Assembly (NCBI GenBank): GCA_018818405.1
Contig: JAHIRY010000038.1
Location: forward strand, 35,449 to 99,448
From: Patescibacteria group bacterium
GTDB taxonomy: Bacteria > Patescibacteriota > Patescibacteriia > UBA11705 > JABHMO01
Direction of reading: 5' to 3'
DNA length: 64,000 nt
Notes under the pieces: generated by a model
What the model was told of the DNA's origin: nothing
The model's input: the letters and a program-made list of their open reading frames with translations, nothing else
Database searches by the model: none
Translations under genes and position numbers: made by a program
Part shown: piece after piece, positions 22,171-54,400 of the stretch
Layout: each line of letters begins with the position of its first letter
Position numbering within the stretch: position 1 is the first letter of the stretch

Positions 22171-22269
22171 CGCTGATATTAAATAAACAAATTTCACGCA
22201 TGATTGACGTAAAAAAATGAAAATGATAAATTTCAAATGGAAATAACCTGCGCACAAGGAGGAAAAAGC

Positions 22270-22923
22270 ATGCGCAATGCGAAATTTGTTCCGGTCATTC
22301 TTTTCTTTGCGGCGACCATGTTCGCCGCTTGCACAGACGAAAATGACAATTCGAAAAAAAAAGCAAGCGAAGGTGAAGCAGAATCGGTCGGCTCGATGAC
22401 AATCATTTCCATGCCGGTGGAAGACGCGGAAATCATTCTCAATGAAGAGGAAACCGGCCACCGCACGCCGCAGACTTTTCACAATCTTTCGCTCGGTCTT
22501 CACCAAATAGAACTGAAACTCGCCGGTCGGCGGCAAGCTGATATTCCGCTGGCGGTTTCTCTGACCGCCAAGGAGGAAGACTCCGATACTCCGCAATTAT
22601 TGAATGTTGAAATTTTCCTGTACCGAGAACTCTCGGGGGGATGGAAAGATGAATCCGGCGCGCGCGTCGAGGCGGAAATGGAAATTGTGACCGAGGAATA
22701 TGAATATCTGTGTCCTGACACGCCGCTCAGCGTTCGCGGATTCGATCCTGTCGGATCGCTCTGCGTGGAAAAAGACGATACGCTCTCACTCTGCAAAACG
22801 CATGACGCGAAATGCGGCGAGCAGTTTGCTCAAGGCAGGATCGCTGATGACGGCAATGTCGTGGAATTCACGGTAGCCGAATCTGAAAAAGTGATTCGCT
22901 ACACCAGACTCCCGACAATGTAA
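22270..22923 (+). CDS. lipoprotein with PEGA-like beta-sandwich domain (ORF from 22237; SD indicates the 22270 start)
   Basis: signal plus lipobox FAAC; MTIISMPVEDAEIILNEEETGHRTPQTF...HQIELKL PEGA-like pattern; paralog of 24046. Confidence 0.7.
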   Translation: MRNAKFVPVILFFAATMFAACTDENDNSKKKASEGEAESVGSMTIISMPVEDAEIILNEEETGHRTPQTFHNLSLGLHQIELKLAGRRQADIPLAVSLTAKEEDSDTPQLLNVEIFLYRELSGGWKDESGARVEAEMEIVTEEYEYLCPDTPLSVRGFDPVGSLCVEKDDTLSLCKTHDAKCGEQFAQGRIADDGNVVEFTVAESEKVIRYTRLPTM

Positions 22924-22954
22924 TCCGCGCGCAAACGCGCAATCAACTGAAAAA

Positions 22955-22990
22955 CCCGCGAACGCGCAGAGCGTCGCGGGAATTTTTTTT
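22955..22990 (+). terminator. intrinsic terminator
   Basis: CCCGCGA-loop-TCGCGGG hairpin, T8. Confidence 0.6.
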
Positions 22991-23030
22991 AAGTGAAACT
23001 ATTTATAAACCTGCGCCCCGATCAGCGAAA

Positions 23031-23250
23031 CTACGACGACAGCAGACTCTGAATCGAGTTCAGAGTGACAGGTGTGGGGCGCGAATTACTAACAATTGCA
23101 ATGAACCTCGAATAGTTGCCACAGTTTCGCAAATACGCAAATGCACAGTTACTCTTACTCCGTCGTCGGCTCTCCCATCGTCACTCTGAACTCGATTCAG
23201 AGTCTGCTTCCGGTTCGCTTAGTCGATTCGCTTACAATGTCGTCATCGCG
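23031..23250. repeat. palindromic repeat family R4, units a (inverted) and b (direct) (core CGTCACTCTGAACTCGATTCAGAGTCT plus ~45-nt tail)
   Basis: 23045-23069 and 23178-23250 are mutually inverted copies; core is itself a 9-bp-stem hairpin. Confidence 0.8.
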
Positions 23251-23267
23251 CAACAACTCACATACCG

Positions 23268-23573
23268 CTAATTCCACGTTGCGCTCAAATCTTCAAAATT
23301 AGGATTTTCCTTTTTTATCAAATCAATTTTCCACGGCCGATGCCATCGCTTCAATTGTTTTTCTCTGGCAATGGCAGAATACACATCCGTAAAATCCTCG
23401 TAATAAACTAATTTTTGTAAACAATAACGAGCGCTGAATGAATTTGGATTGTATTTATTTTTGTGTTCCCACAAACGCCGCTCAACATTGTTCGTCACGC
23501 CAATATAAAAAACCGTATTCCTTGTGTTTGTAATAATATATACATAATAATTACGTTGAACAAATTTTCGCAT
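23268..23573 (-). CDS. small GIY-YIG nuclease (YhbQ/COG2827-like)
   Basis: YVYIITNTRNTVFYIGVTNNVERRLWEH GIY-YIG core; 101 aa; paralog of 33838. Confidence 0.8.
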   Translation of the reverse strand: MRKFVQRNYYVYIITNTRNTVFYIGVTNNVERRLWEHKNKYNPNSFSARYCLQKLVYYEDFTDVYSAIAREKQLKRWHRPWKIDLIKKENPNFEDLSATWN

Positions 23574-23676
23574 ATCATTTTTTAAATCATGCTAACTAAT
23601 ACTTTCAGAATAGCACAATTTTTTTTCGACCGGAATAAACAACGAAACAATCGCGCCTTCGTTCAGCGAAACTTCC

Positions 23677-23905
23677 GACGCTAACAGACTCTGAATCGAG
23701 TTCAGAGTGACGGGGTGCGGCGCGTCGTCTCATCATCATCATGATTATCCTCGTCACTCTGAACTCGATTCAGAGTCTCCCTCCGGTTTCACCTAGTCGG
23801 TTCCGCTACGACAGCGTCCGCCCGCCCCTCCTCATCGTCACTCTGAACTCGATTCAGAGTCTCTTTTCGGTTTCGCTTAGTCGATTCGACTGCAACGGCG
23901 TCGCG
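23677..23905. repeat. repeat family R4, units c (inverted), d and e (direct, tandem)
   Basis: 23677-23712, 23749-23819, 23833-23905 share the CGTCACTCTGAACTCGATTCAGAGTCT core and tail. Confidence 0.8.
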
Positions 23906-24045
23906 AAACATTCGTCTGCCGTGTACAGGCGTCACAAACGCAAACATTCCCGTAAATTTACACGCAACCTTGACAAAAACCAAAGCAAATGATATATTCG
24001 GCATAGAAAGAAATCACATGGCGATTTAAACAAGGAGGTGTAGCC

Positions 24046-24756
24046 ATGAAGACGAGAACCATGTTTCTCTGTGTCCTGTTCCTTTTTTTGACAACCGTAG
24101 CCGCATCCTGCGGCGAAGACCCCACCAACGCGCCGGGCGAAGGCGAAGGCGAAGGCGAAGGCGAGGGTGAAGGCGAGGGCGAAGGCGAAGGCGAGGGCGA
24201 AGGCGAGCAGCTCGGCTCGCTTACCGTCACCTCCGCGCCGCACGACGGCGCGCAGATCATCATGGATGGCGTGGACACCGGATTCGTCACCCCGCACACG
24301 TTCGACGAGATCAGTGTGGGACGGCACGAGGTCGAGCTCAAGCTCGACGGCCGGATCCAGGCCTACATCCCGCAGGAGGTCGTCCTGACCTCCGGCAAGG
24401 AAGACAGCACCGTGCCGCCAAGCGCCACGGCCGAAATCTTTCTGTATCTGGATCTGACGGGAAAATGGTATGAAGCGGAAATAAATCGGACGACCGAAGC
24501 AGTGGTTTTCCCAAGTGCCAGACTCCAACAACCGGAAATCTCCTGCCCAACCACGGAGATGGCGGCAGGCAAATTTCCCCTATACAACACACTGTGCATC
24601 GAGAGAGACGACTCTCTCTCTCTCTGCAAAGACCATGCCAGCGACTGTTATGGAGCCGAAGTCCGCGGCTCCGTTCAGGAAAACGGCACGAAGATCGAAG
24701 TCACAGATTTCTTTTTTTCTCCGCCGAGGGTACTACACTACACTCTGGTGCAGTGA
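24046..24756 (+). CDS. PEGA-domain lipoprotein paralog with (GE)13 low-complexity linker, strikingly GC-rich (~60%)
   Basis: signal plus lipobox AASC; LTVTSAPHDGAQIIMDGVDTGFVTPHTF aligns colinearly with the 22270 protein; SD AAGGAGG. Confidence 0.75.
   Translation: MKTRTMFLCVLFLFLTTVAASCGEDPTNAPGEGEGEGEGEGEGEGEGEGEGEGEQLGSLTVTSAPHDGAQIIMDGVDTGFVTPHTFDEISVGRHEVELKLDGRIQAYIPQEVVLTSGKEDSTVPPSATAEIFLYLDLTGKWYEAEINRTTEAVVFPSARLQQPEISCPTTEMAAGKFPLYNTLCIERDDSLSLCKDHASDCYGAEVRGSVQENGTKIEVTDFFFSPPRVLHYTLVQ
24136..24207 (+). repeat. (GGCGAA/GGCGAG)n hexanucleotide tandem repeat encoding (GE)n
   Basis: about 11-12 tandem hexamers seen directly. Confidence 0.85.
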
Positions 24757-24794
24757 ACTGCTCTATAGTGTAGTAGCATTTGGCCAATCAAAAA

Positions 24795-24826
24795 CTCCCA
24801 CCGTCAAGAACGGTAGGAGTTTTTTT
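24795..24826. terminator. bidirectional intrinsic terminator between convergent genes
   Basis: CTCCCACCGT-CAAGAA-CGGTAGGAG, T7. Confidence 0.65.
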
Positions 24827-24831
24827 AATTG

Positions 24832-27800
24832 CTACGGTAATACTATAATTTTTCCATCGAAAGAAGTCCCCGGCTCTCCGTGCTCATCCAGTGGATCACA
24901 CAATGGAAAATCACCTTCATTATAACACCCATCCGCACCCCCGCACGTCCCATTACACCACCCCCAATTATCCGTCACAATCACCCGCGGAATATACTGG
25001 CAGGCGGGATTGCCTTGGTATGTTGTTCTGCAGTAATTCGGGTCTGCGCCGGCAGTGCCGCAATCCTTCAAAACAGGATCAGACAAATTACAAGTATAAG
25101 TATTATTGTAAGAGAAATACGATTCCATGCATGCATCAGTCGTGTCGCCGAAACGATCATCCTTTTGATCGGAACATTTCCCGGTGAAGAAACATCTGCT
25201 CGGATCGCTTCCCTCTTCACATCGCGGATCGTCAGCATCATAGCACGCGGAATCATCAGAGCAAGCCAGACCGGAAACTCCGTTGCATATTCCCAACGGT
25301 TCATTGGCCGGTCTCTGACATCGAGGCTTATGATTTTGGTACTTTCCATCAACGCCCACTCCCTGAACTCTCTCACCCCAATCGATCGTCACATTTCTTA
25401 TCGGCATCTGATCATCATTCGCCCAAGCATAGAAATTCATTGTCACTGCCAACTGACCATCCAGACTTACAATATCGCCGCTCGTCTGTCCGCGAATGGT
25501 CATCGTATTGGGAATAGCGCCATACAAAACATTTCCTTTCGCGTCAGACCTGCCACTGGGTATTGCGGCCGCAATCATCGGAACACCGACTTTTTGCTCA
25601 TTACTGATATCCCAAATTTTATTAGGATTATTCAAGTAGCCTATTCCATCGGCATTGCTCGGAATGTTAATAATATTTGAGCAGGATGCGCTCGGATCGC
25701 TTTTCATTTCCGGAGGATTTGTCGCGACCACTTCTTTTAGAATAACCGTGCCGACATACCCAAATGGAGTATGCTCATATTTTTCTATTGGGCAACTATT
25801 ATTCTCCAATGTCCTGCCGACATAACATTCCGCAGATATTTCCTGCTGTGCAAAGTTATAACTGTCTATGAAAAGCCAATGTTCTGCCAAAATGCTCCGA
25901 TCAGCTTTCTGCCATATGCAATTCGCCTCATTGCGTTCAATATTTGGCAAATTGGCAGTGCAATAAACACGATTTCCAGCATTGCCGACTACCGGAGCGG
26001 TATTCACACATTCGGTATCCCAGAAGCAAGGATTGCCGGAATTCGCTCCCGATTGATTATTGCAATGGCGAAGAGTAAGAATATTGCATTCCAACGGATA
26101 TTGAGCGGTTGTACAAACATTTGAATCACTGGTGCAAGACAATCCGTTTATTTCAGGATGAATGCTGGTGCAGGTTTTTTCTTCAATATTTTGAATTTTC
26201 ATTTCGTAATAAGTCTTTGCCGCAGCAAAATACTTTTTCAAAGCATCAATACTTTGATAAACAATTCCGCCCTCAGGATAGTTCTCTTCCTGATTGCACC
26301 CAGCACCCAAAAATAAATTGTAAATAGTCTCGCCAATACCGCCCGTCAATGCCAAGGCTCCAAGCGGATTGCACTTTGGCTGATCAGGAATTTGAACGGA
26401 TTTATAAATTTCATTAGTAAATGCTTTGTTTTTTCCATTCTCATCGGATACTCCGACAGCAGTATCACAGCTTTGCTTTGATATTTCGCCGATCGCCGCA
26501 TTCGTATTGCCGGCTGCATCCTTGTACCAGCCAGCCGATTGATCAGCGGGCATATTTATCGGTTTACATTGATATGTCATTTTAAACCAATCTTCATCCT
26601 CTAGGCTACACTCATCTGTAGCGCCATCATGGTCGAATATACCGCCATCATGTTCGAATGAATTCGCTCCGCCGATATTATAATTCTTATCACAACTGGG
26701 ACGTTCAAACTTCTCGCCACCGCAATCTCTGGTCCAACAAGATGCTGTATTTCCAATGCCTCCAAACGGATCAGTATTCGCATTAATTGTTCCGGCTGAA
26801 ACATTGGAGCTTCCCACCAAGCGATCCCATAATTTGTCCGCTGTCCACCGAGTATAAACATTTGGATTGCCGCTCACGCAAGCGGAACCGTTTCCATCGC
26901 ATTCTATTCCGGCAGTACTGGAAGCTAGGCCGGCCGGCAAACAATTTTCACGAACTTCTTTTGTTTCTCCATTACACGCATCCAGAGCCCCTCCATCGCA
27001 ATCCCTATACCCTTCTTCCGTTTGATTATAATTCTGTCTCTTTTCCCAATTACTGCTTTTCAGACAATAGTAAGGACTGCCATCGCTAAATCCATAATCT
27101 TGCGGCCAGAAGCCGGCGGAATCATATTGATTCTGCAAATCCTGCAATCCGGCCAACGCTTCCGTCGGATACCAAGTAATGCAAGGATGTTCTTCTTGTT
27201 TGTTATTTTTCGGCAGACTGATGTCCTCTTGCAGACAATATCCTTCCCAGCCATGATAATCTATGGCAGTGCCTTTCTTTTTCATGCATAACCCCGGTTC
27301 ATTTCCTTTTGAGATAGGTTTTGAAGAATTGAGAGAACACTGGATAGAAGAACACATTGTTTTATTATTTATCTTTACCATGGGAGAACTATCAATTTGC
27401 GGATAATCAAAATCATCGCACTGACATTGAATATCAGGTGAATCCTGACAAAAGCCTTGTTCCGGATCTGCTGGCGAATATAATTCTGTTTTCGGCACAT
27501 ATTTTGTGATCGCCCCACCACCATATTGAACCTCTCGATAATAACAACCGTAGTCTTCATTTTTATTAATTTCCGCAAAATCCACATCCAGCCAAGAAAT
27601 ATTCGCGTTTACGTATAAATCAGTGCCTGCAATACCGGCTGGAAACGGCGAATCATCCTTCGGATAAGCACGGCATTCCGGAGCTGCAGCTTCTTGAAAT
27701 GTTCTTTCTGATTCCGAGGTCTGCACACAAATTCCACTCAAACATCGACAATTTTCTCCGCTTGGATTTGCAACAGTACAAGCATCCGTGCAATCACTAT

Positions 27801-30800
27801 CCTGTTCACAAGAGGTATCGGTTAATTGATTTACCAATCTAAAATCTTTTTCTTTATAAACTTGCCCGCGAACTTCTTCACAACTAACGACTGCCTCAAT
27901 CCTGCAAATATTGCCTAAGGAAATGCAGTTTCGTCCTCCGCTACAATCATCGGCTGCTTCGCAACGGCCATATTCTCTTTCTCCACCGCAATAACTTCCG
28001 CAATCAGCATCCGTGGAACACAACCCTTCGTTCGGATTACCAAAACAATATTGTTGACCGCAATCATTGTCATTCACACAAAGATTGCCTGAAGTTACTC
28101 CTCCGCATCTCTTGTCCGGTTCAACCCCGCGTCCCTGCCTCAAATCAAAAGAATTATAAAAATTTACCGGCGCCATATCCGGAATCGCCATTCCGGTATA
28201 ATCGAGCGAAGACCAGCTGACATTTCTATTCTGATAACCGTCAGTTTCATCCGTTCCCTTCAAAGGTTTGTTCAATGACAATAAATTATTATTATCTTCA
28301 CCGACAATGAAATGCGCGCACTTCAATGTATCTTCCGCCGGACTGAGCTTGTCGCAAACTCCGACATCATCGCAAACCTCAATATATTTATTTTTATTCG
28401 AATCCCACGCCCAGTGACTGGACTTGCAATCGTACCAAGCCGCGCATTCGCGATCGCGGACGACTTTTACTATGGAATTCGCATCATTTTTTGAAGCAAT
28501 CAATTCAAATGTACAGGCAATCTGTCTATCAGTACATGTATTAATCTGCTCGGCGCGCGCTTCTCCTGCGCAAGTCAAATAATCTTTTTCAGCATTCACA
28601 CAAGATTCGACTTTTTTACAATAATCATCTTCAGTACAATCACCCACCCGCCCCAGAGCATAACTATCAAACGTCGAAGCATTCTTTGGCGGAACAGCAC
28701 TTTGTTTATCATTTCCTTCAAAATATGTTAAATATCCCTGCCATTTCAAATCAGGTTCGCCATTGGCATTTAACATAGAGGTATCATTCATCAAAATACA
28801 ACCTTCTTTACGACTGACATCTGAACAGGAAGTCTTGTCTATGTCTTCATTATTAACATAATAATAAGCTTTTCCTTTGTCTGACAAAGTTTTATCAGTG
28901 GGATCCACGAACGCGGTGCACAAATCCGCGCTTGACTTGCAGATACCGGCCCAGCCTGAGAAATCTTCATCATTTATTCGAATAATCTGCGAATTTCCAT
29001 CTTCATAATAATTCTTTGTCTCGCATAGTACATCCGGATCATTATCATTCAGTTTCTTTTTGAACCATCCAAATATACTCTCAGAACCTTGCTGAGCTTT
29101 TCTGTATTCGCAAGTTTTATCACCCGGATCCTTAAAATAATAAGTTTCACCTTTTACTCCCTTGAATTCCTCACATCTCAAATCACTATTAGCGCACAGA
29201 GGACTGTTCTCACTATCAAAAGTATCAGGATCCAGTTTGTAAAATACATTGTTCCATTTGTCCTGGGATGGAATATAATTCCCCTCAGCATCCACCATCA
29301 AAGTCGGCAATCCCAGAGCCGTACAACCCTTTTCCGTGTTTTTACATTGTTTATCTTTTGTGTTAACGAGATAAATCAATGAATCTTTTTCTATTTCTTG
29401 AAGGTAGCAGACACCATCGTTCCAATTTCCATCCAAATAACCACACATGTTTTCATAAGTCTGTGAAAGAGCGGGAGGTTCACCGCCAACCTTTGCACGA
29501 ACTTGGAATGTACATGCTTGCAAATTTTCATTCACAACGGCTGCAGTTCCCGGTATCTGGAAAAAATTATTCGTTGGAACTGCCTCCCATTTACTCATAT
29601 AAGAGGAACACAATTCAACATTCAACGGAATTTTCTTGTATCCTTGTTCAAATGGAGACGAACTGTTCTTCGTATCAATCATCGTCTCGCAACCGACCTT
29701 GTCAGCCGAACAGATATTGGTAAAGTTTTTCAGATAATGAGTATTCTTGCCGCTGTCGCGATATTCGCGGCAACCCAGCTGAGCTTGCGGAATTTGTCTG
29801 TCAGCTTCATTTGCCGGAGTATGGGTCAGCTCATTGTCGCAGATCGCCGGAGTACTCCATGAATTTTTGATTAAATATTTGAGATCATTTACTTTTGTGA
29901 TTTTGAAATTGTCGATGTAAAAAGTTCTTTCGCACTGGGACGCGCGTATGCCTATAACACCGGAGGCATAAGTCTCATCCACACTCAAATTAAAAGTATG
30001 AAACTGCCAATCAGCATTAACCGTGCCGTCACCCAATAAAAATTTTCGATCTCCGGTGTTTATATTTTCAACCGGCCTCACATCAACATTGAAATTCGTG
30101 GGATCGCCTTTGATCCAAAAAGAAACAACATAATCACCGACTGCTGATAAAAGCGCATTTTTTGTATATATTCTTGGTGATTCAACACAACTCAATCCCT
30201 CAATCCCGTTAACAGACTCTATTTCAGTCTTCTCTTCCACCATTAAATACTGCCCATCCGCTTGTGTCGTAAGCGACATTGGACTTCCTTGCAAACTAGT
30301 TACCTCTCCGGTCGCAAAATTATTCTCATAAACAATTTCCTCATCACCGCTGAAATTGCCTTTGTATTCTCTGCAGCCGGCGGCAGGCGCTGAACATTTC
30401 TTGCCTTCGCCCGGAATTGCCATGAAAACGCATTCGCCAGTGTTCCACTGCCCCTGCCTCAGTTCGCATTGAGCCTGATCCGCGTATTGCAATGTTCGGC
30501 GATAAGGATGACAATTTTCCGAACAAGTCAGAGTCTTTGAATACAAACGATAAGAAACTCTGCCGGCATCATCGTAAAATTCACGGCAGTCGGGATTTGA
30601 TTTTACAGCGAATATTTCCGCGTTGCACCGGGTTAGATTTTCTTCCTCTGCAATCGTCATTGCCGGAGCATTTCCTCCGAGTTCTTTTTTCAATACATAA
30701 TTCTGCAATTGATAACCGGAAACTCCGCCTCCGACCCAAGTATAATAATTGGCGCACTGAGCCTCGCCCTCGGGAAGTTTCTGGCATTGCCTCAATTCGG

Positions 30801-33753
30801 AATAATATTCTTTTGATTCTCCGCCTCGCGACAATTCATCCAGATTGGTAAATTCATCGCATCCGGCGCTGGCCGCGCTGCAAGTTTTTGCAGTATTCGG
30901 CATGAAATAAAGCGGAAACTCTCCATTTTCAAAATAAGTTTTCGACTGGTTGAATGTCGCATAGCCAGCGCATTGCTGAGGACAATAATCCGCGAATCCG
31001 GCAACGCCGTTGATAGCGCGTCCGCGATCAGTCGGCGTGAAATTCTGACAGCCGACATCTTCGGCAGAACAAAGTCCGGCAAAATCAGAACAGCCTTTGT
31101 TTTTCTCGGTTTTTACCGCATCATCGGAAACATCAATATCAGCCTCAGTCTTCGGCCTGCCATAATCCGCCTCTTCAATTGTATTGTAGCAACCCAAATA
31201 TTCAGGCGCTTTTTTCACATAAACAACATTCTGGCTGGCATATTCATTGAATTCATGCATTTCGGAAATTGCCGGCAGAGAAAGTTCCTCAACCATTACA
31301 TTGTCCACGATCGCGTCTCCGCCGGCCACAGCCAATTGAAATTGCAACTTGTCAAGTACGATTGGATTCGCTCCGGTCGATACTTTCACTTGCCAAATTT
31401 TATAAATTTTTTCCCAGCTGTCCGTTGCTGTCGCCGCTGTAATATCTTTATTGGCAACAGCTGACATGGCCAATCCATCTGCATCGGGAGCAACCAATTC
31501 GATCACTGCCGACGCATTGGCCTGTTTCTTTTTCACAAACCCGGAAACCGCAAAATATCGGGCTGTTTTCTTTGGCGCGATTTCAATATTCGGAATAATT
31601 AAATTTTCCAAAGCGGCTAATTTAACGGCCGCTCCTCCTTCATAAGACTCGGAAACCACATTTTTCCCGCCCGCCCAGCCGGTGACAATGTTCGTTGATT
31701 GCAATTCATCAATTCTCCCTGAAAAAATTTCAAAATCTCCGTTTACCACCAGATTCGTTCCCAATCCGCTCGCTGTTTTCACAAATCTCGTGCAACCCTC
31801 TTGATTCGGATTGCATTGCGCGTTTTCGATATTTTTATTCAATAAAATTTTTGAAGCATCCGCGTCCACCCAATTCCAAGAATTATCCGCCAATATTTTC
31901 TCAGTGCTGTACCACTTGCAACCCGCGTTCGTCGCGTCGCAAACCGATCGATCGACAGTGTTCATCACCAAATTAACGGATTTTCCCTTCCTCATCTGCA
32001 AAGAACGGCAACTGTCATAAACGCCCGAACATTCATCTCCGCCCAATCGGAAAACATTTTTCTCAGCCGCGCAATATCCCCAGGAAAGACACTTGCCCTT
32101 TGCATCAGTGCGCACACAGCTCGGCATATCAACGCAGACTTCAGCTCGAGTGTTCGAACCCGCGTCAATCAACAATGGTCCGTTAACCAACGCATTGCAT
32201 TGCGTTGCCGGATATTTCAAAATCCAATTCGGATCAATCAACTGCCTGAATTTATAACCCGCGTCATTTGGATTAGTTTGATTGAATTGACTGATTACAT
32301 AATTCAATGAGACAACTTCTTCCGAACCAACCTGACTGGCGGCAAGCTCCCAGCCGATTGGAATTATTCTCGCTGTTCTCAGTTTCACCAAATTGGAATA
32401 ACAAAAACCGTATTGATAGCAATCGGCATTGGAATTTCTCGCATCATACTTTCCGATCAAACGGCGCTTGCCGTCAATCAGTCCCTGATCAATGGCCTCC
32501 TGCACTGACAGCGGCTTGTCCTGAGTTGAACGGCGAACAGCATCGGCAAACGCATTATCCATGACGCAATTGTTTATCTGCCTTGTCCGGGGACAAGAGG
32601 TATATTCAGTCAATAAATCAATTTGCTTGGTGGAATAAGTGAAATTAACCTGCTTTATTTTTATTACGTCTTTTTCCACCTGCTTTTTCGTATCAAACAT
32701 ATTGTCAGCCGGCTGATAACTCTCCGAAGTTTGCACCAATCCCTTTTCAAAAAACTTCTTGCTCATGAAGTCAACAAATCCTTTTGAAATAAAAGTATTA
32801 ACAAAAGCGCCGATTACCGATTCCGGTATATCGGAAATCACATAACTGGCCGGTTCCATTTCAGTATTCTTCGCCTCGGTAATTGCTTGCAGTTCGTTTG
32901 TCATGTGTCCGCGCAAAAGGAAAGAAGGCGTTTTTATAATATCGCCACTCAGACTGGTTATCGCCTTTGCTCCTAAATTTTCCGTTCTTTGCTTTTCTTC
33001 CGCCATGCTTGTAATGCGCTGTTGTCTCTGCAATTCATCTTCCATTGTCAGATACATCCCGATGTCAGAACTTTTGCGATCAAACTTCACTTCAATGATT
33101 CTCTGCAATGCGATAAGAGTACCGGCGGCCGGATTATCAGAAATATTATCAGCTGTTCGTTTAACATCCTCGACAAATGATTCCCAATTATCTAACAAAT
33201 TACTTAAAGAACAATCCGGTTTTACCCTTGTTTTATCTTTTAGATATTGATTATCCAAACCAATAACGATTTTCAATTTTACATCAGCTCCGGGATCGCA
33301 AATATCAAATCCCAAATCATCCCAAAATACATCTCTGACATAGGTAATGAATGTCGCTGCCGTGTAATCCATTATATCCTGCTTGAATTTTTCCCACGAC
33401 TGAGTGTAAAACATCGGTCCCTCGCCCTTGTCGCCGGTAGTGACAAAATTATAATATTGAGACGCCGCTGTTTGCGCCAGAAAAACCATAGTATTGCGCA
33501 AAGTAATGGCTGCGGATAAAATCAATGCTTTCTGCAAACGATTTTCCACATTTTTTTGAGTTTTATCAACCGTTTTCTCAATGTTGCGCTTGACTTCAAA
33601 ACCCATATCCTGCGCATTTTTAGCGGGATCAATGACCGGCAATTCAGCGCGAGCCTCTCGCGGGAACAACATGCCGGCAGCAATGAAATTTGAAAACGCA
33701 AAACAAAACACCAAAATCGCGATTGATATTTTTTTGTTTTTATTTAAAGTCAT
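24832..33753 (-). CDS. giant (2973 aa) Cys-rich secreted/surface protein with CBM4/9-like beta-sandwich segments
   Basis: uninterrupted 8.9-kb ORF; N-terminal signal/TM; many Cys; NGDFE...GW CBM-like blocks. Confidence 0.85.
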   Translation of the reverse strand: MTLNKNKKISIAILVFCFAFSNFIAAGMLFPREARAELPVIDPAKNAQDMGFEVKRNIEKTVDKTQKNVENRLQKALILSAAITLRNTMVFLAQTAASQYYNFVTTGDKGEGPMFYTQSWEKFKQDIMDYTAATFITYVRDVFWDDLGFDICDPGADVKLKIVIGLDNQYLKDKTRVKPDCSLSNLLDNWESFVEDVKRTADNISDNPAAGTLIALQRIIEVKFDRKSSDIGMYLTMEDELQRQQRITSMAEEKQRTENLGAKAITSLSGDIIKTPSFLLRGHMTNELQAITEAKNTEMEPASYVISDIPESVIGAFVNTFISKGFVDFMSKKFFEKGLVQTSESYQPADNMFDTKKQVEKDVIKIKQVNFTYSTKQIDLLTEYTSCPRTRQINNCVMDNAFADAVRRSTQDKPLSVQEAIDQGLIDGKRRLIGKYDARNSNADCYQYGFCYSNLVKLRTARIIPIGWELAASQVGSEEVVSLNYVISQFNQTNPNDAGYKFRQLIDPNWILKYPATQCNALVNGPLLIDAGSNTRAEVCVDMPSCVRTDAKGKCLSWGYCAAEKNVFRLGGDECSGVYDSCRSLQMRKGKSVNLVMNTVDRSVCDATNAGCKWYSTEKILADNSWNWVDADASKILLNKNIENAQCNPNQEGCTRFVKTASGLGTNLVVNGDFEIFSGRIDELQSTNIVTGWAGGKNVVSESYEGGAAVKLAALENLIIPNIEIAPKKTARYFAVSGFVKKKQANASAVIELVAPDADGLAMSAVANKDITAATATDSWEKIYKIWQVKVSTGANPIVLDKLQFQLAVAGGDAIVDNVMVEELSLPAISEMHEFNEYASQNVVYVKKAPEYLGCYNTIEEADYGRPKTEADIDVSDDAVKTEKNKGCSDFAGLCSAEDVGCQNFTPTDRGRAINGVAGFADYCPQQCAGYATFNQSKTYFENGEFPLYFMPNTAKTCSAASAGCDEFTNLDELSRGGESKEYYSELRQCQKLPEGEAQCANYYTWVGGGVSGYQLQNYVLKKELGGNAPAMTIAEEENLTRCNAEIFAVKSNPDCREFYDDAGRVSYRLYSKTLTCSENCHPYRRTLQYADQAQCELRQGQWNTGECVFMAIPGEGKKCSAPAAGCREYKGNFSGDEEIVYENNFATGEVTSLQGSPMSLTTQADGQYLMVEEKTEIESVNGIEGLSCVESPRIYTKNALLSAVGDYVVSFWIKGDPTNFNVDVRPVENINTGDRKFLLGDGTVNADWQFHTFNLSVDETYASGVIGIRASQCERTFYIDNFKITKVNDLKYLIKNSWSTPAICDNELTHTPANEADRQIPQAQLGCREYRDSGKNTHYLKNFTNICSADKVGCETMIDTKNSSSPFEQGYKKIPLNVELCSSYMSKWEAVPTNNFFQIPGTAAVVNENLQACTFQVRAKVGGEPPALSQTYENMCGYLDGNWNDGVCYLQEIEKDSLIYLVNTKDKQCKNTEKGCTALGLPTLMVDAEGNYIPSQDKWNNVFYKLDPDTFDSENSPLCANSDLRCEEFKGVKGETYYFKDPGDKTCEYRKAQQGSESIFGWFKKKLNDNDPDVLCETKNYYEDGNSQIIRINDEDFSGWAGICKSSADLCTAFVDPTDKTLSDKGKAYYYVNNEDIDKTSCSDVSRKEGCILMNDTSMLNANGEPDLKWQGYLTYFEGNDKQSAVPPKNASTFDSYALGRVGDCTEDDYCKKVESCVNAEKDYLTCAGEARAEQINTCTDRQIACTFELIASKNDANSIVKVVRDRECAAWYDCKSSHWAWDSNKNKYIEVCDDVGVCDKLSPAEDTLKCAHFIVGEDNNNLLSLNKPLKGTDETDGYQNRNVSWSSLDYTGMAIPDMAPVNFYNSFDLRQGRGVEPDKRCGGVTSGNLCVNDNDCGQQYCFGNPNEGLCSTDADCGSYCGGEREYGRCEAADDCSGGRNCISLGNICRIEAVVSCEEVRGQVYKEKDFRLVNQLTDTSCEQDSDCTDACTVANPSGENCRCLSGICVQTSESERTFQEAAAPECRAYPKDDSPFPAGIAGTDLYVNANISWLDVDFAEINKNEDYGCYYREVQYGGGAITKYVPKTELYSPADPEQGFCQDSPDIQCQCDDFDYPQIDSSPMVKINNKTMCSSIQCSLNSSKPISKGNEPGLCMKKKGTAIDYHGWEGYCLQEDISLPKNNKQEEHPCITWYPTEALAGLQDLQNQYDSAGFWPQDYGFSDGSPYYCLKSSNWEKRQNYNQTEEGYRDCDGGALDACNGETKEVRENCLPAGLASSTAGIECDGNGSACVSGNPNVYTRWTADKLWDRLVGSSNVSAGTINANTDPFGGIGNTASCWTRDCGGEKFERPSCDKNYNIGGANSFEHDGGIFDHDGATDECSLEDEDWFKMTYQCKPINMPADQSAGWYKDAAGNTNAAIGEISKQSCDTAVGVSDENGKNKAFTNEIYKSVQIPDQPKCNPLGALALTGGIGETIYNLFLGAGCNQEENYPEGGIVYQSIDALKKYFAAAKTYYEMKIQNIEEKTCTSIHPEINGLSCTSDSNVCTTAQYPLECNILTLRHCNNQSGANSGNPCFWDTECVNTAPVVGNAGNRVYCTANLPNIERNEANCIWQKADRSILAEHWLFIDSYNFAQQEISAECYVGRTLENNSCPIEKYEHTPFGYVGTVILKEVVATNPPEMKSDPSASCSNIINIPSNADGIGYLNNPNKIWDISNEQKVGVPMIAAAIPSGRSDAKGNVLYGAIPNTMTIRGQTSGDIVSLDGQLAVTMNFYAWANDDQMPIRNVTIDWGERVQGVGVDGKYQNHKPRCQRPANEPLGICNGVSGLACSDDSACYDADDPRCEEGSDPSRCFFTGKCSDQKDDRFGDTTDACMESYFSYNNTYTCNLSDPVLKDCGTAGADPNYCRTTYQGNPACQYIPRVIVTDNWGWCNGTCGGADGCYNEGDFPLCDPLDEHGEPGTSFDGKIIVLP

Positions 33754-33781: not shown

Positions 33782-33860
33782 GTCGCACTTCGACAAGCTC
33801 AGTGTGACAGGGGGGGGGAAGCGCCCCCTCTCACTTGTCAGGCTGAGCCTGCCGAAGCCC
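33782..33860. repeat. repeat family R5 (inverted unit, G9/C5 hairpin, partial direct unit), downstream of the GIY-YIG gene
   Basis: GTCGCACTTCGACAAGCTCAGTGTGAC, AGGGGGGGGGAAGCGCCCCCT, CTGAGCCTGCCGAAG. Confidence 0.75.
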
Positions 33861-34143
33861 CGTTCGACAACTCCTTCAATCTTTCAATATTCCCCTCAAT
33901 TAATGCAACTTTCTTTCTGCGGCTCCAACCTTTTATTTGTTTTTCTCTGGCGATCGCGTCATTCACATAATAATGTTCTTCCGCATATACCAATCGAACC
34001 GGCCGCCGCGAATATGTATAACTTTTTTCGCTTATTCCCAAATTATGTTCATCCAGCCTTCGTTCAATATTATTTGTTATTCCCGTATACAAACTCCGAT
34101 CGCTGCATTCAACTATATAAACCGTGTATATCTTTCTAAACAT
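33838..34143 (-). CDS. small GIY-YIG nuclease, second paralog (ORF to 34167; likely start is MFRKIY at 34143)
   Basis: YTVYIVECSDRSLYTGITNNIERRLDEH GIY-YIG core; C-terminus is read through the R5 repeat. Confidence 0.8.
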   Translation of the reverse strand: MFRKIYTVYIVECSDRSLYTGITNNIERRLDEHNLGISEKSYTYSRRPVRLVYAEEHYYVNDAIAREKQIKGWSRRKKVALIEGNIERLKELSNGASAGSA

Positions 34144-34160
34144 TTGCAATAAACTTTTAT

Positions 34161-34311
34161 GTCGCACTTCGGCAGGCTCAGTGTGACATGAATTTAACTG
34201 TCACACTGAGGCTAAAAGCCTGTCCCGAGTCGCATCGAGCGGAAGCGTGCTATCATCGTCATCGCAATAACTGTCACACTGAGCCTGCCGAAGTGCCGCT
34301 TCGCTTAACAC
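34161..34311. repeat. repeat family R5: one inverted and two direct units (GTCACACTGAGCCTGCCGAAGTGC...TTCGCTTAACAC)
   Basis: 34161-34187 (inverted), 34200-34222, 34273-34311; 11-bp stem between the first two. Confidence 0.8.
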
Positions 34312-35162
34312 TAATCCCCCTGCTTCGCCTGTTCCAACGCGTCCAAATACATCTGCTTCAAAGTCGCATCATCGAATTCCTGCAACATTGATTCCTCTAC
34401 GCCCTGATCCAACAACAACTGTTTTATTTCCGCTACCGACAAATTTTCCGGAGCCGTTGTCGGCGATCCGTTCATTGAATCCTGCAAATCCGGATTATCT
34501 TTCAATGTTTGTTTGTATGCTTCGAGAATTGTCGCGTCATCGATCGCGTCAACTTGTTCTCTGGTAAAATTTCCCGAGCTGACCAAAATCTCGCGCAATT
34601 GCGCCGGCGAAATATTGTCAACATTCACTTCAGCGGTTGAACTTTGTTCCGCTGCCGCTTCACCGGTTGAACTGCGGAAACATTCCTGTCCGAGCGGACA
34701 ATTCGGATCTTCTCCTTTTGAAATTTCATCAAAATCGGAAATTCCATCACTGTCGCTGTCAGCCAAATACGGACTTGTTTCATAGACATACATTTCATCA
34801 AAATCATTTATCTGATCGCTGTCAGTGTCTTTGCCTTTTAAAACCGCCGGATCTTCATCGGCCGGATCAGTTGTTTGTTGTGAATTTGCTTGCGTATCCG
34901 TTGTTTTTCCGCCGATCAATGGAAATGGAATTGAAAGCGCTCTGGTAATTTGAATAAATCCCAGCGCAATTATGCTCAATCCGATAAACCCAATAAAAAT
35001 CAAAGCAACTTTTTGATTGCGTTTCAACGCTTCAGGCAAAATAAAATTTTCTTTATTCCCATCAAGTTTTTCTCCGAGAGAATTGCCTTCCGCGATAATC
35101 TCATTGCCGTTTTCATTATTTAAATCATTCAGCTCATCTTTCTCCGGCTGATTTTCATACAT
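34311..35162 (-). CDS. single-pass membrane protein with thrombospondin-type-3-like Ca-binding repeats
   Basis: TM helix ALIFIGFIGLSIIALGF; DSDSDGISDFDE, DTDSDQINDFDE motifs. Confidence 0.65.
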   Translation of the reverse strand: MYENQPEKDELNDLNNENGNEIIAEGNSLGEKLDGNKENFILPEALKRNQKVALIFIGFIGLSIIALGFIQITRALSIPFPLIGGKTTDTQANSQQTTDPADEDPAVLKGKDTDSDQINDFDEMYVYETSPYLADSDSDGISDFDEISKGEDPNCPLGQECFRSSTGEAAAEQSSTAEVNVDNISPAQLREILVSSGNFTREQVDAIDDATILEAYKQTLKDNPDLQDSMNGSPTTAPENLSVAEIKQLLLDQGVEESMLQEFDDATLKQMYLDALEQAKQGD

Positions 35163-36180: not shown

Positions 36181-36238
36181 CGGAAATGTGGAATTGTAAG
36201 GGTTCAACATGTTGAACCCTTACAATTCCACATTTCCG
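36181..36238. repeat. 58-bp perfect palindrome (29-bp arms) between prfB and rsmA
   Basis: CGGAAATGTGGAATTGTAAGGGTTCAACA|TGTTGAACCCTTACAATTCCACATTTCCG verified base by base. Confidence 0.9.
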
Positions 36239-48488: not shown

Positions 48489-51400
48489 TTATTTACACAC
48501 AGGGAAAGCAAGCCCCGGCACAACACTGTAATTGTAAGTATAACCGTCGGAGTTTGTTTCCAATCGATATTTCAATTCATAACAATTTTGCAAGCCTGAA
48601 GCGGAAGCTTTGTATGAATAAACCGGATGATCGGTTTCATGCCCGGCGTAAATATTGGCAAAAAGCTGATTACTGCTATTATAACATGTTTCGCCGTTAT
48701 AGCCTTGGGCGCAGTTGACGCAGGCAAATCCCGGAACAGCGCATTGATAACTCAAATCCGGACATTTCAAAATCGGAGTTTCGTCCTCGACCGAGCAAAT
48801 TTCACCGGTATAATCGCCGCTCTCCGCCGGTGTTTCCCATTTGAAATGATTCTCCGGATCTCTCGGCAATTCCGCGCCGAGTTCCCGACCCAATTCTCCC
48901 TGCCATGACGGCCAAACGCTGAATGTTTGTCCGCGGACATAAGATCCCGATTCGAGCATTGGGACTTTATTTCCATGAGCATTCTTGTAATTTTCCAGAT
49001 AAATTCTCATCAAAACCATGTCGCTGATTCTCTTTGTATCGCGAATGATTTGCGATTTGTCCGGATCAGAGCTCGCGTCGCGGTTCAGATTGAACTTGAT
49101 GTATTTCACCATTTGGCTGTAAATGTTCATTGTTTCCGCGCCGGAATTTCGGGAATAACCCAGCAAATAAATATTATTGTAAACCGTCTTGTTAGCGGAA
49201 ATATTGGCCGCTGAAATATAAATGCTCGAACCGTCCTGCGCCGCAGCATAACAATTTCCCTGAAGATCGCAATCCACTTCCACTTTTGAAGTGCTCGCAG
49301 CCGGATTCGGCGCATAATTCTGATACCACACATCAGGCGGCAATGCTTCCGGATTTTCATAAATTCTGAGAGAAATAACATCAGCTGACGGAATTCCGTC
49401 CGGAGTGAAGAAATATTGCGCCAAGAGTTTCGGCTCCTCAGCCGGATCATCGGCGGAAACGCATTTTTTGTCATCCGGAAAATCAATCAATCCGTTTCGA
49501 TCATTGTCAATTCCGTCTCTGCATTGATTCTCGGATTGAAGACGCACTTGCTCTGCCGCCGCTCCCACATCCGAGCCGAATTGGCTGAACAGATTTACAT
49601 AATTAAATGAACCGCCAGAACAATGATCATCTCCGGTACAAACGCCGATCGCGTTTTGCTGATCATCGGAATTTTTCAAATTATGTTCAAAATCAAGATG
49701 AACAATCAAATTCGGATCATTCTGATCAGTTAAAACATATTGATTTGCAATTATCTCTCCGGTTGTTCTTGCCGTTTTCCAAATTCTAAAATCTTCCAAA
49801 TACCCGTTCAAGCCTCTATCCGGAGTTCCAAAAGATGAACCCACATAAATATCTTTATTCTGAGAAACGCCAGCTACAGGAAAGCTGGAAGCAGCAAAAT
49901 TGCTTCTTTCTCCATCAATAAAAATCTGATACTGCAATCCTCCCGGATGTTCTCCGTCATAAACGACCGAAATTGCATGATACCCTGCAGAAACCGATTG
50001 CGTTGTCTGCAATTTGATGGAATTTAACTGACCATATCTCAGATTCCAATAAACTTTGTTTACCAATCGACCATTTTCCTGAATCGGAAACAAACCAATC
50101 AAAATCTGCGGACATCCTCCGGGAACGGCAGCTTCACAATTGAGATTTTTCGTAAAAATCGGTTGAAACACTTGCCCCGACGGCTCCGGCACATATATCA
50201 GTGATTCAATAGTCCACGGTTTGCTGAAATCTGAAAAGTCCAATTTATTTTGCAAAGCGTCGGTATATGGAATTCGCAATTTATCGTTTTGATCAAATTT
50301 AATGGCAAATCTGTTCGGCGGGATTGCCACTGCCGGCGATTCTTTCAATTTCGGCAGATCATCCGTCGTGTCATTTCCTTCGCCGAAATCGCGGCAGTAG
50401 AAGAGACCGACATTATATTCTTTTTCATTCAGATGAACCGGTACTTTTGTTCCCGTTCCGGTTTCATATTCCAACAAATCCCATTTATCCTCTTCAAAAT
50501 GTTCCGGCGACCATGGATTCTCGCAAATCATCATTTCTATTGTTGCCGCGCCTTCGACAAATGCTCCGGTCGAATCAGCGGAATTAACATCAGCGCAAAC
50601 GCAATTTTCCGCGCCTTCCGCACAGGCGACCGCCGGATCCTGCGTCGCGTCGCGGCATACGCGGCGAATCTCGCCCAGAAAACCGCCTTGGTCAAGGCCC
50701 AATTTGTCAACCGTTATCACCGCTTTCGCGTGAATCTGAGTTTCTCCGTTTTTCGCCGTTGTTGTCACTTTAACCTCGTTTTTATTCTTTTTATCAGATC
50801 CGTTCTGCACAACATTGCAAACTTCCTCATCCTGTCCTTCCACCGCTTCCATCGAACAAATTTTCCCGACAATGGAAGAATCATCGGTTCTCCATTCCCA
50901 GCGCCAATCATAAACTCCGGGAATTGCCTGAATCAAATTTCCTTTGCTCTTGGCGATTGCCCTGTAATCTTCCACATGATCCTGATCGAGAATCAATCGG
51001 TAATCAGGATCCAGACTCACCTGATCGAGCTTGCAAACTTCATTGCCGGTTGAAAATTGAGTGGTGAATTGTCCCAAAACATCGCCGCAAATATTGGTCA
51101 TGTCATCCATTACAACCAAGATTTGTTTTCCGGCGGGCAGAGCTTGTTTCGGAGTAATCATAATGGCGGTTCTTCTGTCAGCCGGATTTTGCTCGCCCGT
51201 GCTCTCAACCGAAACATTATCTATCTCAATACGGCACAAATAAGCTTCCTGCGCAAATGTCACTTTTGCCAATAAATTCTTCAGCGCCAATTTCAATCTC
51301 TGGAAAAATCCCATGGCAGTCTCCGCCGGACATGCCTCTGCGCTCAAATAAAATAATTTTATATTTGTTGAAATATTTTGCTCTCCGATTTTCTTGTTGA

Positions 51401-54400
51401 ACGGAATATAAATCAATGCATTCCGGCAAACACCCGCCGAATTTCTAGCCGGAACTATGTTATTCACATCCATGCGAATATCCGGAGACACGCATTGTCT
51501 GTCGCGAAAAGTCAATTCCGTTGTTCCTGTTTTTGAAATCGGATTATCGCCCGTTTCAGTGCCGGTGGCGCTGATATCGGTGCTGTCCTGCGCATAATGC
51601 TTTTCCGGATCATACAAATTCAGAATATCAATATTGCCGACAACCGTTGCCGACTGATACGGACTCTGACCGATGGACTGACCGCCCGGCTCGCATTGAT
51701 CATCCTCTCCGCTTCCAACAATTCCATCTCCGCAGGCAGAGCCGGCTTCAACCGATGAACCTTGATTCAGACATTTTCCATTGCAATATGAAGGAAATCG
51801 ACAGACGCATCCCTGATCAACGCCATAGACGCAACCGGAACCATCGGCTTTTTTGCATTCTGACTCGCATTCTTCATTTCCATCAATCGTTCCATTTCCG
51901 CAACAATTCTCCGTCACCGCGCCGATACAGCTCGTAAATCCTCTCCACAAACATCTTTCATTGCAATCCGGATTGTCAGCCAATGAACAGACACAGCCCT
52001 GAACTCCGTAAGCGCAAGCTGAATTATTGGCGTTTTTACAAATGGCTTCGCATTCTTCTCCGCCTTCCAGCTCTCCGTTGCCGCAGAGCGCTGACGCCGC
52101 CGGCTCTCCTTTTTTATATTTTGAACCTTCATTTAAACATTTGTTCGAACAACCGTCTCCATTGGAAGTATTGCCGTCATCGCAATCTTCGCCTTCTTCC
52201 ACTATTCCATTGCCGCAGACAAATCCGGCAGCGGTTCCCGCTTTCAAACAACCGGCAGTGCAAGCAGGATCCTTTGCCACGCAAACGCAACCTGCATCTT
52301 CATCTTCCGGGTCGCAGGCTTCGCCATCTTTCAAGAATTGACAAGCGAAATCGCATTCTTCCGTATATGCAATATCTTCGATCGAATAAGTTCCGTCTTC
52401 CCTGCCGTTGCCGCAACATTTTTCATTTTCCGCTCCGGTGCAAAGATTCGGCACCGCCTCGCGCAAACAGTTGGCGGAACAACCGTCTCCATTGGCAATG
52501 TTATCAATTACATCGCATTCTTCACCGCTTTCCCTGATCCCGTTTCCGCAAACCGATGCCAAAGAACCGCTGCCTCTGGACAAACATTTGTCAGTGCAAA
52601 ATTCCGGCAACCCCAAATGATAAAGCGTATCGGAAATTGTCGCCACATTCGGCTTGCCGCTCATCCATGCCCAAGTATAATCATATTGATTCAAAATCTG
52701 TCCCTCCGGATCGCAAGCATCCGGCGCGCTCCTCGGCAGAGCTGAATATGAGATTCTCTGTTCCTTCGTCTCGCTGAGATAACTCTGAGGCATGACTGAA
52801 ACCGAATTGATCCGGCATTTCTCTTCTGTATTTTTTGTTTTGAAAACCCAGCTGAACGAGTCCGTTGTTCCTTGTTCCGCTAGCGCGGTGCTGTAATTCA
52901 AACCTGTCAGATCGACTCCGCTCGCACTCTGAGTATTTCCGGAGATTACCACTCGATAAAATTTGTTCGGCAGTAATTCGTTGCTCGGATTTACAGTCAA
53001 TCGGTTGGTCAGTTTTCCCTCTGCGTCCAATTCGAATTGATAATTCGGAATACTTCCCGCCAAATCAACTTCATCAAAAGTGACGCAATCGGCGCCCGCT
53101 CTGCAGGCAAACAATTTAACATTATCCGTATTCAAGGTTTCAGACCCGTCGACAGCAACATTAATCAAACTTGAAGATTTCATCTGAATATTGAAATCAG
53201 CGCCAAAACCGGCATTAATGCACGCTTCATCGCAAGCCGGAAAATATGAAACCACTTTCGGATCAGCGAATTTTATTTCCAGTTGCGCGTCCTTTGAAAC
53301 ATTGCCGGCAGTACGGAAAATCATTGAATCGGTCGCGATGGTTGCGTATGCTCGCACTCCGACAAGTTCATCAACGGTTGTTTCCAAATTTACCGGATTC
53401 GCTTTTGCCTCGGCTGACAATCCGAAAATTCCAATATCTTTTCGCAATCCATCTTCATCGAATGCGTTTCTCTGGAATGAAACTCGCTCGCTGTTCTCCC
53501 GCGGATCATTCGCCGTCCAGCGCCAATTTTCATCCATTAGCGAAATATCCTGGCACTGATATTGTCCGGAAACCATGAAAGATTCCGTGTCATCCAGTGA
53601 ATCAATCAAACCTTTGATCGGCTTCATCAACAATGTATCGGCAGAACACAATTCCGGCAAAGTTCTGAATTGCCATGAATAATCTCTGGGCATGAATTCT
53701 CCTTTTTCTGTCGCAATACCGTCCGCGCCTCCTTTTATTTCAACTTTATACAATGTATTTTTGAACAAATTGGCGTAAAATCTTGGACCCTCCGCTATCG
53801 GAGCCGCTCCGCCCTTAAACAAAGACTTATTCAAAGTTCTGGCCAAATGAAATTCAGTCAACTGTTTTCCGGAAACTTCACACTCGCAATTCGGCGTTCC
53901 GGCGGCGCAAGAACTTCCGTTTCTGAGACAAACGGCAGATTCATTGGTCGTGCCGATATCATTCGGATCAATCGCCCCGACCGGCTGAGTAATGCAATTC
54001 TCTTCGCACTTGTCCAGATCGCATTGGCCGAGATCAACGGTGCAAGTGCAGGCAGCGGAAGTTTCAACGCATTCTTCACTTTTATTTTCCTCGCATCTCA
54101 GCGTACGCAGAGGATACTCGCATTTTTTTATCGTAATATTATTATTCAATGTCGCTGAATTGATAATCATGTTAAAAGTTCCGGAAATCATTCCATTCGG
54201 ACAAGCGTCAATAGAACCTCTGAACGGCGAAGGCGATTGCGGCAAATATCCGCGAGTGCAGGATCGCTCCAATATTTTCGGGACTTTCGGCAAGGAGCCG
54301 GTGCTCACAATCCAGGCAAACTCAGAATCAGCGCCCTCTGCCGGAGCAACGCATCCGTCTGCAAGGTTTGCGCAAATTCCGGTTGCGCAACATATTCTTC

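Follow-up and report, generated by a model that had tools for sequence, protein, structure and literature searches.

A giant cysteine-rich protein family of Patescibacteria with a conserved upstream partner gene and a variable C-terminal third: a candidate for cell contact

The giant ORF analyzed here is real and is one single gene, and its product is a member of a broad Patescibacteria family in which a signal peptide, a conserved cysteine framework and carbohydrate-binding-like folds are combined with a C-terminal third that varies sharply between strains. We read the protein, with a probability of about one half, as an envelope-tethered contact protein of the glycan-binding type that would serve an episymbiont in host recognition or adhesion, and whose distal tip would be exchangeable. 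How uncultivated, ultra-small Patescibacteria recognize and hold other cells is an open question and, to our knowledge, there are almost no molecular candidates for this role outside the Saccharibacteria. The family provides a concrete and widespread one (at least 521 species), to which about 9 kb of genome are devoted. A giant cysteine-rich protein is in itself no surprise in a CPR genome; it is the two-gene module, the rule of even cysteine numbers and the cassette-like variation of the tip that make the question of docking testable.

The giant gene, its family and its partner

The window, i.e., the whole 64-kb stretch of DNA that was analyzed, is chromosomal Patescibacteria DNA with housekeeping genes, including those for MraY, MurD, FtsW, FtsA, FtsZ, NrdD, HisS and HtrA, as well as ksgA and prfA. 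The features of the giant locus are:

24832..33753, minus strand: giant gene, 2973 aa plus stop, ATG start; the NCBI hypothetical protein KKC32_04100
33784-33814 and 33837-33875: the 25-nt repeat GTCACACTGAGCCTGCCGAAGTGC, its copies lying 31-120 nt before the ATG of the giant gene
33838..34167, minus strand: GIY-YIG nuclease ORF, 109 aa, lying as an insertion between partner and giant gene
34163-34311: inverted copies of GTCACACTGAGCCTGCCGAAGTGC, on the far side of the GIY-YIG ORF
34311..35162, minus strand: conserved partner gene, 283 aa, directly upstream of the giant gene in the family; no Pfam match

An earlier interpretation made without database searches (hereafter the sequence-only reading) had described an unbroken ORF of 8.9 kb with a signal or transmembrane N-terminus and a very high cysteine content, and each of these traits was borne out. 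The 2973 codons were read without a single internal stop, a run whose chance, from the base composition of the strand, is about 1e-84; the only hydrophobic segment of the protein (aa 7-31) is followed by an A-x-A cleavage site (REARA/E), and all homologues have the same signal-peptide pattern at their N-terminus; 137 residues, or 4.6%, are cysteines. The protein, of about 330 kDa, is also very acidic, with a net charge of -136, and is identical to the NCBI entry KKC32_04100, recorded for a Patescibacteria group bacterium. Together with a second giant ORF (48489..56957, 2822 aa), the gene accounts for 17,391 nt, or 27% of the 64 kb, as expected from the claim that two giant genes contribute over 17 kb of coding sequence; BLAST revealed no sequence similarity between the two products. 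After the second giant gene, two further proteins combining a TM segment with TSP3 repeats are encoded. Promoter and terminator scans did not exceed what is expected from shuffled sequence.

The breadth of the family, like its obligatory upstream partner gene, had escaped the sequence-only reading. A word-indexed search returned 74 homologues with 24-51% identity, nearly all of 2600-3700 aa, and those that bear a name belong to Falkowbacteria, Uhrbacteria, Kuenenbacteria or Parcubacteria. An exhaustive HMMER search, queried with aa 1-1200, retrieved 1327 representatives of 50%-identity clusters, 1106 of them at E<=1e-30; when each GTDB species was represented by one genome, a pattern scan picked up relatives in at least 521 genomes. 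The family is broad, and all records are titled or named as Patescibacteria (Falkow-, Uhr- and Kuenenbacteria); in the databases it figures solely as "hypothetical protein", uncharacterized, and no description of it was found in the literature searched. Full-length collinear orthologues range from about 2500 to 3700 aa (median of 3010 aa for 207 proteins pooled from the word-indexed and HMMER searches), an alignment of 70 sequences is collinear from end to end, and 83 of the 137 cysteines are conserved in more than 60% of its members (71 in more than 80%). At 48 loci the conserved C-terminal domain always lies 0-12 residues from the end of the protein. Because the full-length orthologues are collinear and this domain is always terminal, the ORF is not a misassembly: the concatenation of several genes, named beforehand as the finding that would overturn the description, is excluded by orthologues that agree in length and in the order of their domains across hundreds of independent contigs. 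The suggested comparison of orthologues across genomes likewise gave proteins of the same length, collinear, and differing between strains in their C-terminal third.

Counted per locus rather than genome-wide, the giant gene is present once at the loci examined. Its most constant neighbor is the partner gene, which encodes, in this order, a variable cytoplasmic N-tail, one TM helix (aa 49-80) and an acidic ectodomain (aa 81-283) with two TSP3-type DxDxDG repeats (predicted to bind Ca), then a conserved C-P-x-G-Q-x-C loop and a pair of helical repeats, each some 40 aa long. Four copies of the partner served to build an HMM, which was applied to 83 loci, 74 of which had room upstream; by a strict rule, a partner match lay directly upstream and on the same strand in 70/74, and in the remaining four a match was also there, either overlapping the called start or 1.5 kb off. 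Partner genes encode 200-320 aa across loci, and the gap to the giant gene is mostly 0-30 bp. Upstream of the giant gene, ksgA was found in 67 related loci and prfA in 44; inheritance of the giant locus is thus vertical. The downstream gene for a PEGA lipoprotein is not a conserved neighbor in the related loci.

In this window the gap between partner and giant gene measures 557 bp and holds the GIY-YIG ORF. The repeat that had been placed directly in the upstream region of the gene, and labeled R5, is almost certainly, or at least probably, GTCACACTGAGCCTGCCGAAGTGC, of which more copies lie at 60063-60193. Since the related loci L001-L003 are devoid of it, the repeat is part of the GIY-YIG insertion and not of a conserved regulatory region.

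Domain anatomy and cysteine framework

From the N-terminus to the C-terminus, the protein is divided as follows:

33646..33753, minus strand: signal peptide, aa 1-36, with a K-rich n-region, hydrophobic aa 7-31 and the cleavage site
32629..33645, minus strand: N-terminal region, aa 37-375, long helices predicted with low confidence, moderate conservation, no database match
31768..32628, minus strand: aa 376-662, the block of highest conservation, in which a Cys-rich beta region comes after a small alpha/beta domain
31204..31767, minus strand: CBM4/9-like beta-sandwich 1, aa 663-850
30349..31203, minus strand: aa 851-1135, conserved and rich in Cys, with C-x5-G-C-x2-[YF] hairpin motifs at three places
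29884..30348, minus strand: CBM4/9-like beta-sandwich 2, aa 1136-1290
27034..29883, minus strand: central Cys-framework core, aa 1291-2240, conserved blocks and lineage-variable insert islands
25654..27033, minus strand: aa 2241-2700, hypervariable region, sparsely occupied and poorly conserved across the family, mosaic between near-identical strains
24835..25653, minus strand: C-terminal domain, aa 2701-2973, all-beta model with a PKD/Ig-like part and a Cys-rich subdomain

For the protein as a whole, nothing usable came out of Pfam, NCBIfam or the PDB sequences, the lone match (DUF3781) being below threshold. A profile of the N-terminal 1105 aa gave weak CBM matches among PDB sequences and one of the C-terminal 984 aa gave none; Pfam had no recurrent match in 40 C-terminal thirds of the family. 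The block of aa 376-662, with its motifs CYSNLVKLRxARIIPIGWELAA and GYGYCxxEKN, matched no known family. An AlphaFold2 model of aa 36-1140 (27-row alignment, mean pLDDT 59.5) was confident at aa 378-515 (small alpha/beta, pLDDT 70-90), 665-845 (beta-sandwich) and 955-1130 (beta-rich), and showed long helices of low confidence at aa 36-375. In the model of aa 1990-2973 (mean pLDDT 46.8), aa 1990-2718 were unfolded (pLDDT <50), including aa 1990-2240, which are nevertheless conserved; the cause is probably the small depth of an alignment that set a fragment against rows of full length. The last part, aa 2719-2973, was predicted confidently as all-beta, with a PKD/Ig-like part that carries a W-G-D-G-type motif. 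Overall, more than half of the modeled residues were of low confidence. The domain-by-domain HMM searches and structure prediction, which had been proposed as a check, yielded two CBM-like beta-sandwiches and a PKD-like module. Beyond these modules, Pfam, NCBIfam and PDB offer no counterpart to about 80% of the protein, which, with this share of its chain lacking a known fold relative, is a good target for structural work.

The presence of CBM4/9-like beta-sandwiches, an early claim for this protein, was confirmed for two modules by fold and by family profiles, the protein itself having no match to Pfam CBM_4_9 (PF02018). Some of its homologues do match: at module 2, P0018, P0024 and P0037 score above the Pfam gathering cut-off of 25.9 bits (27-31 bits), and within the N-terminal 1105 aa, a span that holds module 1 and not module 2, matches occur in 18/41 homologues at E<=0.5 (best 3.6e-6). 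The modules show a beta-jelly-roll sandwich fold of about 130-150 residues, are related to each other (hhalign probability of 80%) and make up about 11% of the protein. Structural matches of module 1 include CBM proteins of phage baseplates, and the NCBIfam GTA head-spike fibre domain (NF048003) weakly matched this module in 17/41 members (best E=5e-10); the match was mapped in two members, and in both it stays below the curated cut-off (36 bits), and the giant protein itself had no NF048003 match. The likeness to CBMs is thus one of fold and profile only, and glycan binding is a prediction drawn from it.

No internal repeats were found by self-BLAST, and hhalign between segments recovered solely the pair of CBM-like modules and a motif of about 20 residues. 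A short motif, C-x5-G-C-x2-[YF], has at least eight copies (aa 605, 647, 895, 958, 1120, 1348, 1470 and 1643), whose cysteines are nearly invariant across the family.

The cysteines themselves follow a strict arithmetic. Among 179 full-length members, which have between 82 and 182 cysteines each, the number in the mature part is even in 168 (94%; binomial p=1.5e-37), and variable cysteines are gained or lost as reciprocal pairs: 1000-1077 (r=0.97), and 1437-1449, 1912-1918 and 2823-2831 (r 0.9-0.97). The disulfide pattern analysis that had been recommended therefore implies, as far as parity and covariation can tell, a fully disulfide-paired protein of about 68 predicted S-S bonds with an extracellular location. 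By this rule, organisms that come mostly from anoxic groundwater would carry out extensive disulfide chemistry outside the cell. The positions conserved in at least 90% of members (n=193) comprise 66 Cys, 30 Gly, 17 Pro, 12 Tyr, 11 Trp, 3 Glu, 1 Ser and 0 His, and no conserved catalytic-type residues were seen among them; the pattern looks like that of a framework or scaffold and not of an active site.

Variation of the C-terminal third

Conservation in the family is highest at aa 400-660, 900-1130, 1300-1350, 1500-1650, 1750-1800 and 2150-2200, and breaks down over aa 2250-2700 as well as in short islands of the core, near aa 1400-1450, 1700-1750 and 1900-1950, where insertions are found. The same pattern is seen at short evolutionary distances. 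In eight close pairs, identities of about 80-100% drop to 35-69% within aa 2250-2700. The pattern is clearest in the strain variants P0019, P0020 and P0021, which come from different samples: they are 98-100% identical over the first 2250 aa, two islands excepted, and only 25-70% identical past that point. Within this trio the differences are mosaic: P0020 equals P0021 near alignment positions 2951-3200, and P0019 resembles P0021 near positions 2551-2650. The DNA flanking the giant gene is about 98% identical between variants (94.7% downstream in one pair), and the substitution rates are as follows:

First 1400 codons: dS 0.03-0.04, dN/dS 0.13-0.16
Variable parts: dS 0.3-1.3, dN/dS 0.3-0.7

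The dS of the variable parts is 10-30 times that of the core and, because this high synonymous divergence is confined to the cassettes, divergent alleles would have been imported by recombination instead of arising from recent point hypermutation. Positive selection is not demonstrated in these parts, as dN/dS is below 1 and relaxed constraint combined with recombination would look similar. The variability of the giant protein may be taken as a population-genetic signature of an exposed recognition surface, and typing of C-terminal-third alleles across metagenomes could be matched with the co-occurring hosts.

Two known sources of localized protein diversity were considered and rejected. As for the target of a diversity-generating retroelement (DGR), the 64 kb contain no repeat pair involving the 3' part of the gene, no reverse transcriptase was found among the ORFs scanned, and variable parts of more than 2 kb with high synonymous divergence are unlike a short, A-targeted variable repeat. 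As for a polymorphic toxin or CDI protein, the last 270 aa or so form a domain conserved at the C-terminus throughout the family, the downstream gene is not conserved and no toxin family was matched.

Interpretation and comparison with known systems

In the reading that we favor, the partner would be anchored in the cytoplasmic membrane, exposing its Ca-binding TSP3 repeats and its helical repeats on the outside, and would keep the giant protein at the envelope by the latter's conserved N-terminal end; we propose aa 37-375 as the cell-proximal end, and the partner is probably the tether. The conserved cysteine-framework core and the two CBM-like beta-sandwiches would form a rigid projecting body, whose exposed, distal C-terminal third would touch the surface of another cell, either a host bacterium or a substrate glycan, and the alleles of this distal part would be swapped between strains via recombination. 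We infer the outward-facing end solely from which end varies. The role in surface interaction that had been suggested for the giant proteins is consistent with the signal peptide, the absence of any other TM segment, the cysteine parity, the predicted binding-type folds and the variable C-terminal third. A far-reaching version, which we put forward only tentatively, is that the giant protein and its TSP3 partner constitute the lineage-defining contact organelle of the branch of Falkow-, Uhr- and Kuenenbacteria, one rigid spike, fastened together by disulfides and attached through Ca2+, made of folds almost all new to Pfam and PDB, and whose exchangeable C-terminal cassettes would set the host cell to which an ultra-small episymbiont can dock.

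The main rival, which we regard as unlikely albeit worth weighing, holds that the giant protein is the main coat of the cell, i.e., an S-layer or envelope scaffold, in which the N-terminal two-thirds would form lattice and anchor, the TSP3 partner and Ca2+ would provide anchoring, and the C-terminal third would vary under pressure from phages or predators. Many S-layers require Ca2+ and have a variable outer face, and groundwater CPR cells show a surface layer in cryo-TEM. A very acidic protein with a Ca-binding partner, conserved at its anchor end and variable at the other, would suit such a coat, and its single copy per locus examined, among housekeeping genes and across at least 521 species, points to a core role in the envelope. 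However, neither an SLH nor any other known S-layer anchoring or lattice domain was detected with Pfam and NCBIfam in the giant protein or in the sets of 41 and 40 family members, and a lattice protein of 3000 aa with some 68 disulfides would be out of the ordinary.

The localized, mosaic and high-dS variability might instead be driven by phages, the giant protein being a phage receptor or shield and its cassettes escape variants, with host adhesion not its main role. The resemblance of a CBM-like module to the modules with which phage baseplates and GTA head spikes bind receptors fits this proposal as well, but the strict conservation of the cysteine framework over 2250 aa and the presence of the partner gene are left unexplained by it, and we consider it improbable. 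Even more doubtful is a secreted enzyme that degrades polysaccharides or cell walls, with the CBMs as targeting modules and the catalytic domain in the conserved N-terminal block. CBM_4_9-type modules usually accompany glycoside hydrolases, and the most conserved block (aa 376-662) indeed has no assigned function; nevertheless, no catalytic family was recognized in Pfam, NCBIfam or PDB, whether sequences, profiles or folds were compared, and the conserved residues are of the framework type, without His and with almost no Ser or Glu.

A role as the tip or adhesin of the T4SS-like or pilus apparatus of the window, with a VirB5/TrbJ-like N-terminus and a giant extension, is very improbable. The mature N-terminus of the homologues often begins with a [VI]-x-D-P-type motif, which we take to recall TrbJ/VirB5, and the window encodes two proteins with a T4SS_pilin domain, one of them the second giant. 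Against this, no VirB5 or TrbJ match was obtained in Pfam, NCBIfam or PDB for 41 family members, the pilin-fused giant has no similarity to the giant protein, and the conserved neighbors are ksgA and prfA instead of secretion genes. Finally, that an assembly artefact joined several genes is refuted by the orthologues, of the same length and collinear in hundreds of independent assemblies, and by the identical NCBI protein on a 101-kb contig.

The contact protein that we favor has its closest counterparts in the large extracellular cysteine-rich proteins known in the CPR Peregrinibacteria/Peribacteria (Anantharaman et al. 2016, PMC4736985), which average 1655 aa and about 7% Cys, are encoded in a 14-gene cluster, have in part some similarity to Myxococcus Cys-repeat proteins, and for which the authors proposed attachment to other cells and noted variation between strains. 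Origin from a CPR organism, a signal peptide, a large size, several percent of cysteine and the lack of functional annotation are common to both. Compared by description, the giant protein differs in its roughly 3000 aa, its non-repetitive sequence, its occurrence once per locus examined, a framework of its own, the TSP3 partner and its presence in another CPR lineage. Unlike the proteins that carry CBM_4_9 modules (family 4/9/16/22/61-type), it has no glycoside hydrolase domain, and its own copies of the module are below Pfam detection; its likeness to GTA head-spike fibres and phage baseplates is confined to one module.

With giant repeat adhesins, such as those of the Bap, RTX and SiiE types or the Giant1-5 proteins of Apilactobacillus (PMC12863079), it shares size, extracellular location, an acidic and Ca-linked character and a presumed role in cell contact. 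In those adhesins tandem Ig-like repeats are numerous and cysteines usually scarce, whereas the giant protein has no detectable domain-scale repeats and about 68 predicted disulfides. Big or cadherin matches were absent from its Pfam results, and reading of its sequence revealed no T1SS signal, LPXTG motif or C-terminal anchor, to which no family match points either. The giant protein therefore differs from the classical giant adhesins in being non-repetitive, framed by cysteines and coupled to a dedicated partner.

Membrane-anchored TSP3 proteins and the second giant gene

Besides the giant gene under study, which encodes a Cys-rich secreted protein, the window holds a second giant gene, whose product opens with a T4SS_pilin/Mbov_0395-type pilin domain followed by Big_5, Big_7, TIG, myxo-type Cys repeats and Laminin_G_3, and which showed no sequence relationship to the giant under study. 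It is adjoined by a shorter pilin-type ORF, and two proteins resembling the product of the partner gene (the gene upstream of the giant under study) are encoded downstream of it:

46398-47516 (-), partner-like protein
47694-48464 (-), partner-like protein
48489-56957 (-), second giant ORF, 2822 aa, 4.3% Cys
56985-58916 (-), 643-aa ORF with T4SS_pilin and Big_5

Both partner-like proteins share the partner's layout, with a Pro-rich tail on the cytoplasmic side, a single TM helix and then TSP3 repeats, and both are matched by the profile HMM built from four partner-gene copies (E=1e-14 for 47694-48464 and 3e-9 for 46398-47516). This suggests that in this organism TM-TSP3 proteins are generally paired with giant proteins of the cell surface.

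An insertion that splits the partner-giant gene pair

The partner gene is separated from the giant gene by an insertion consisting of a GIY-YIG nuclease ORF flanked by inverted copies of a 25-nt repeat, GTCACACTGAGCCTGCCGAAGTGC:

33784-33875, 34163-34311 and 60063-60193, copies of the 25-nt repeat
33838-34167 (-), GIY-YIG nuclease ORF, 109 aa (Pfam E=2.5e-18)

In the related loci L001-L003 the insertion is absent and the partner-to-giant spacing is 3-173 bp; GIY-YIG homologs were found by BLAST close to the giant gene in four further loci. In the window, the 25-nt repeat is also present upstream of hisS, near 60.1 kb. The interval separating prfA from ksgA contains, at 36181-36238, a perfect, spacerless 29-nt palindrome (CGGAAATGTGGAATTGTAAGGGTTCAACA / TGTTGAACCCTTACAATTCCACATTTCCG).

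Lipoprotein and peptidase genes downstream of the giant gene

On its downstream side the giant gene is followed by two PEGA-domain lipoprotein genes and, some 6-9 kb away, by two genes for Peptidase_C39_2-domain proteins, one of which carries a MopE-type metal-binding motif:

15331-16269 (-), Peptidase_C39_2-domain protein
16690-18720 (-), Peptidase_C39_2-domain protein
22237-22923, PEGA-domain lipoprotein
24046-24756 (+), PEGA-domain lipoprotein, convergent with the giant gene

The two PEGA genes are 1.1 kb apart, and clustered in this gap, at 23037-23902, is a 26-33-nt palindromic repeat, GTCACTCTGAACTCGATTCAGAGTCT, in six or more copies of both orientations. The convergent gene encodes a (Gly-Glu)x13 tract through a GGCGAA tandem repeat (24124-24224). 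A PEGA gene occupies the equivalent position in L002 but not in distant loci. In L002 the giant-gene ortholog likewise has C39_2 genes of a similar kind on its downstream side (21946-25736), and the C39/MopE type was found by BLAST in five loci.

Names of the ortholog-bearing records

Several GTDB records with clear orthologs of this Patescibacteria family of giant proteins bear the title 'Candidatus Methylomirabilis sp.' or, alternatively, 'uncultured Gammaproteobacteria'; among them are L027 and many loci under the latter name (e.g., L005, L006, and L011). In the deposited records these titles are probably placeholders or wrong assignments.
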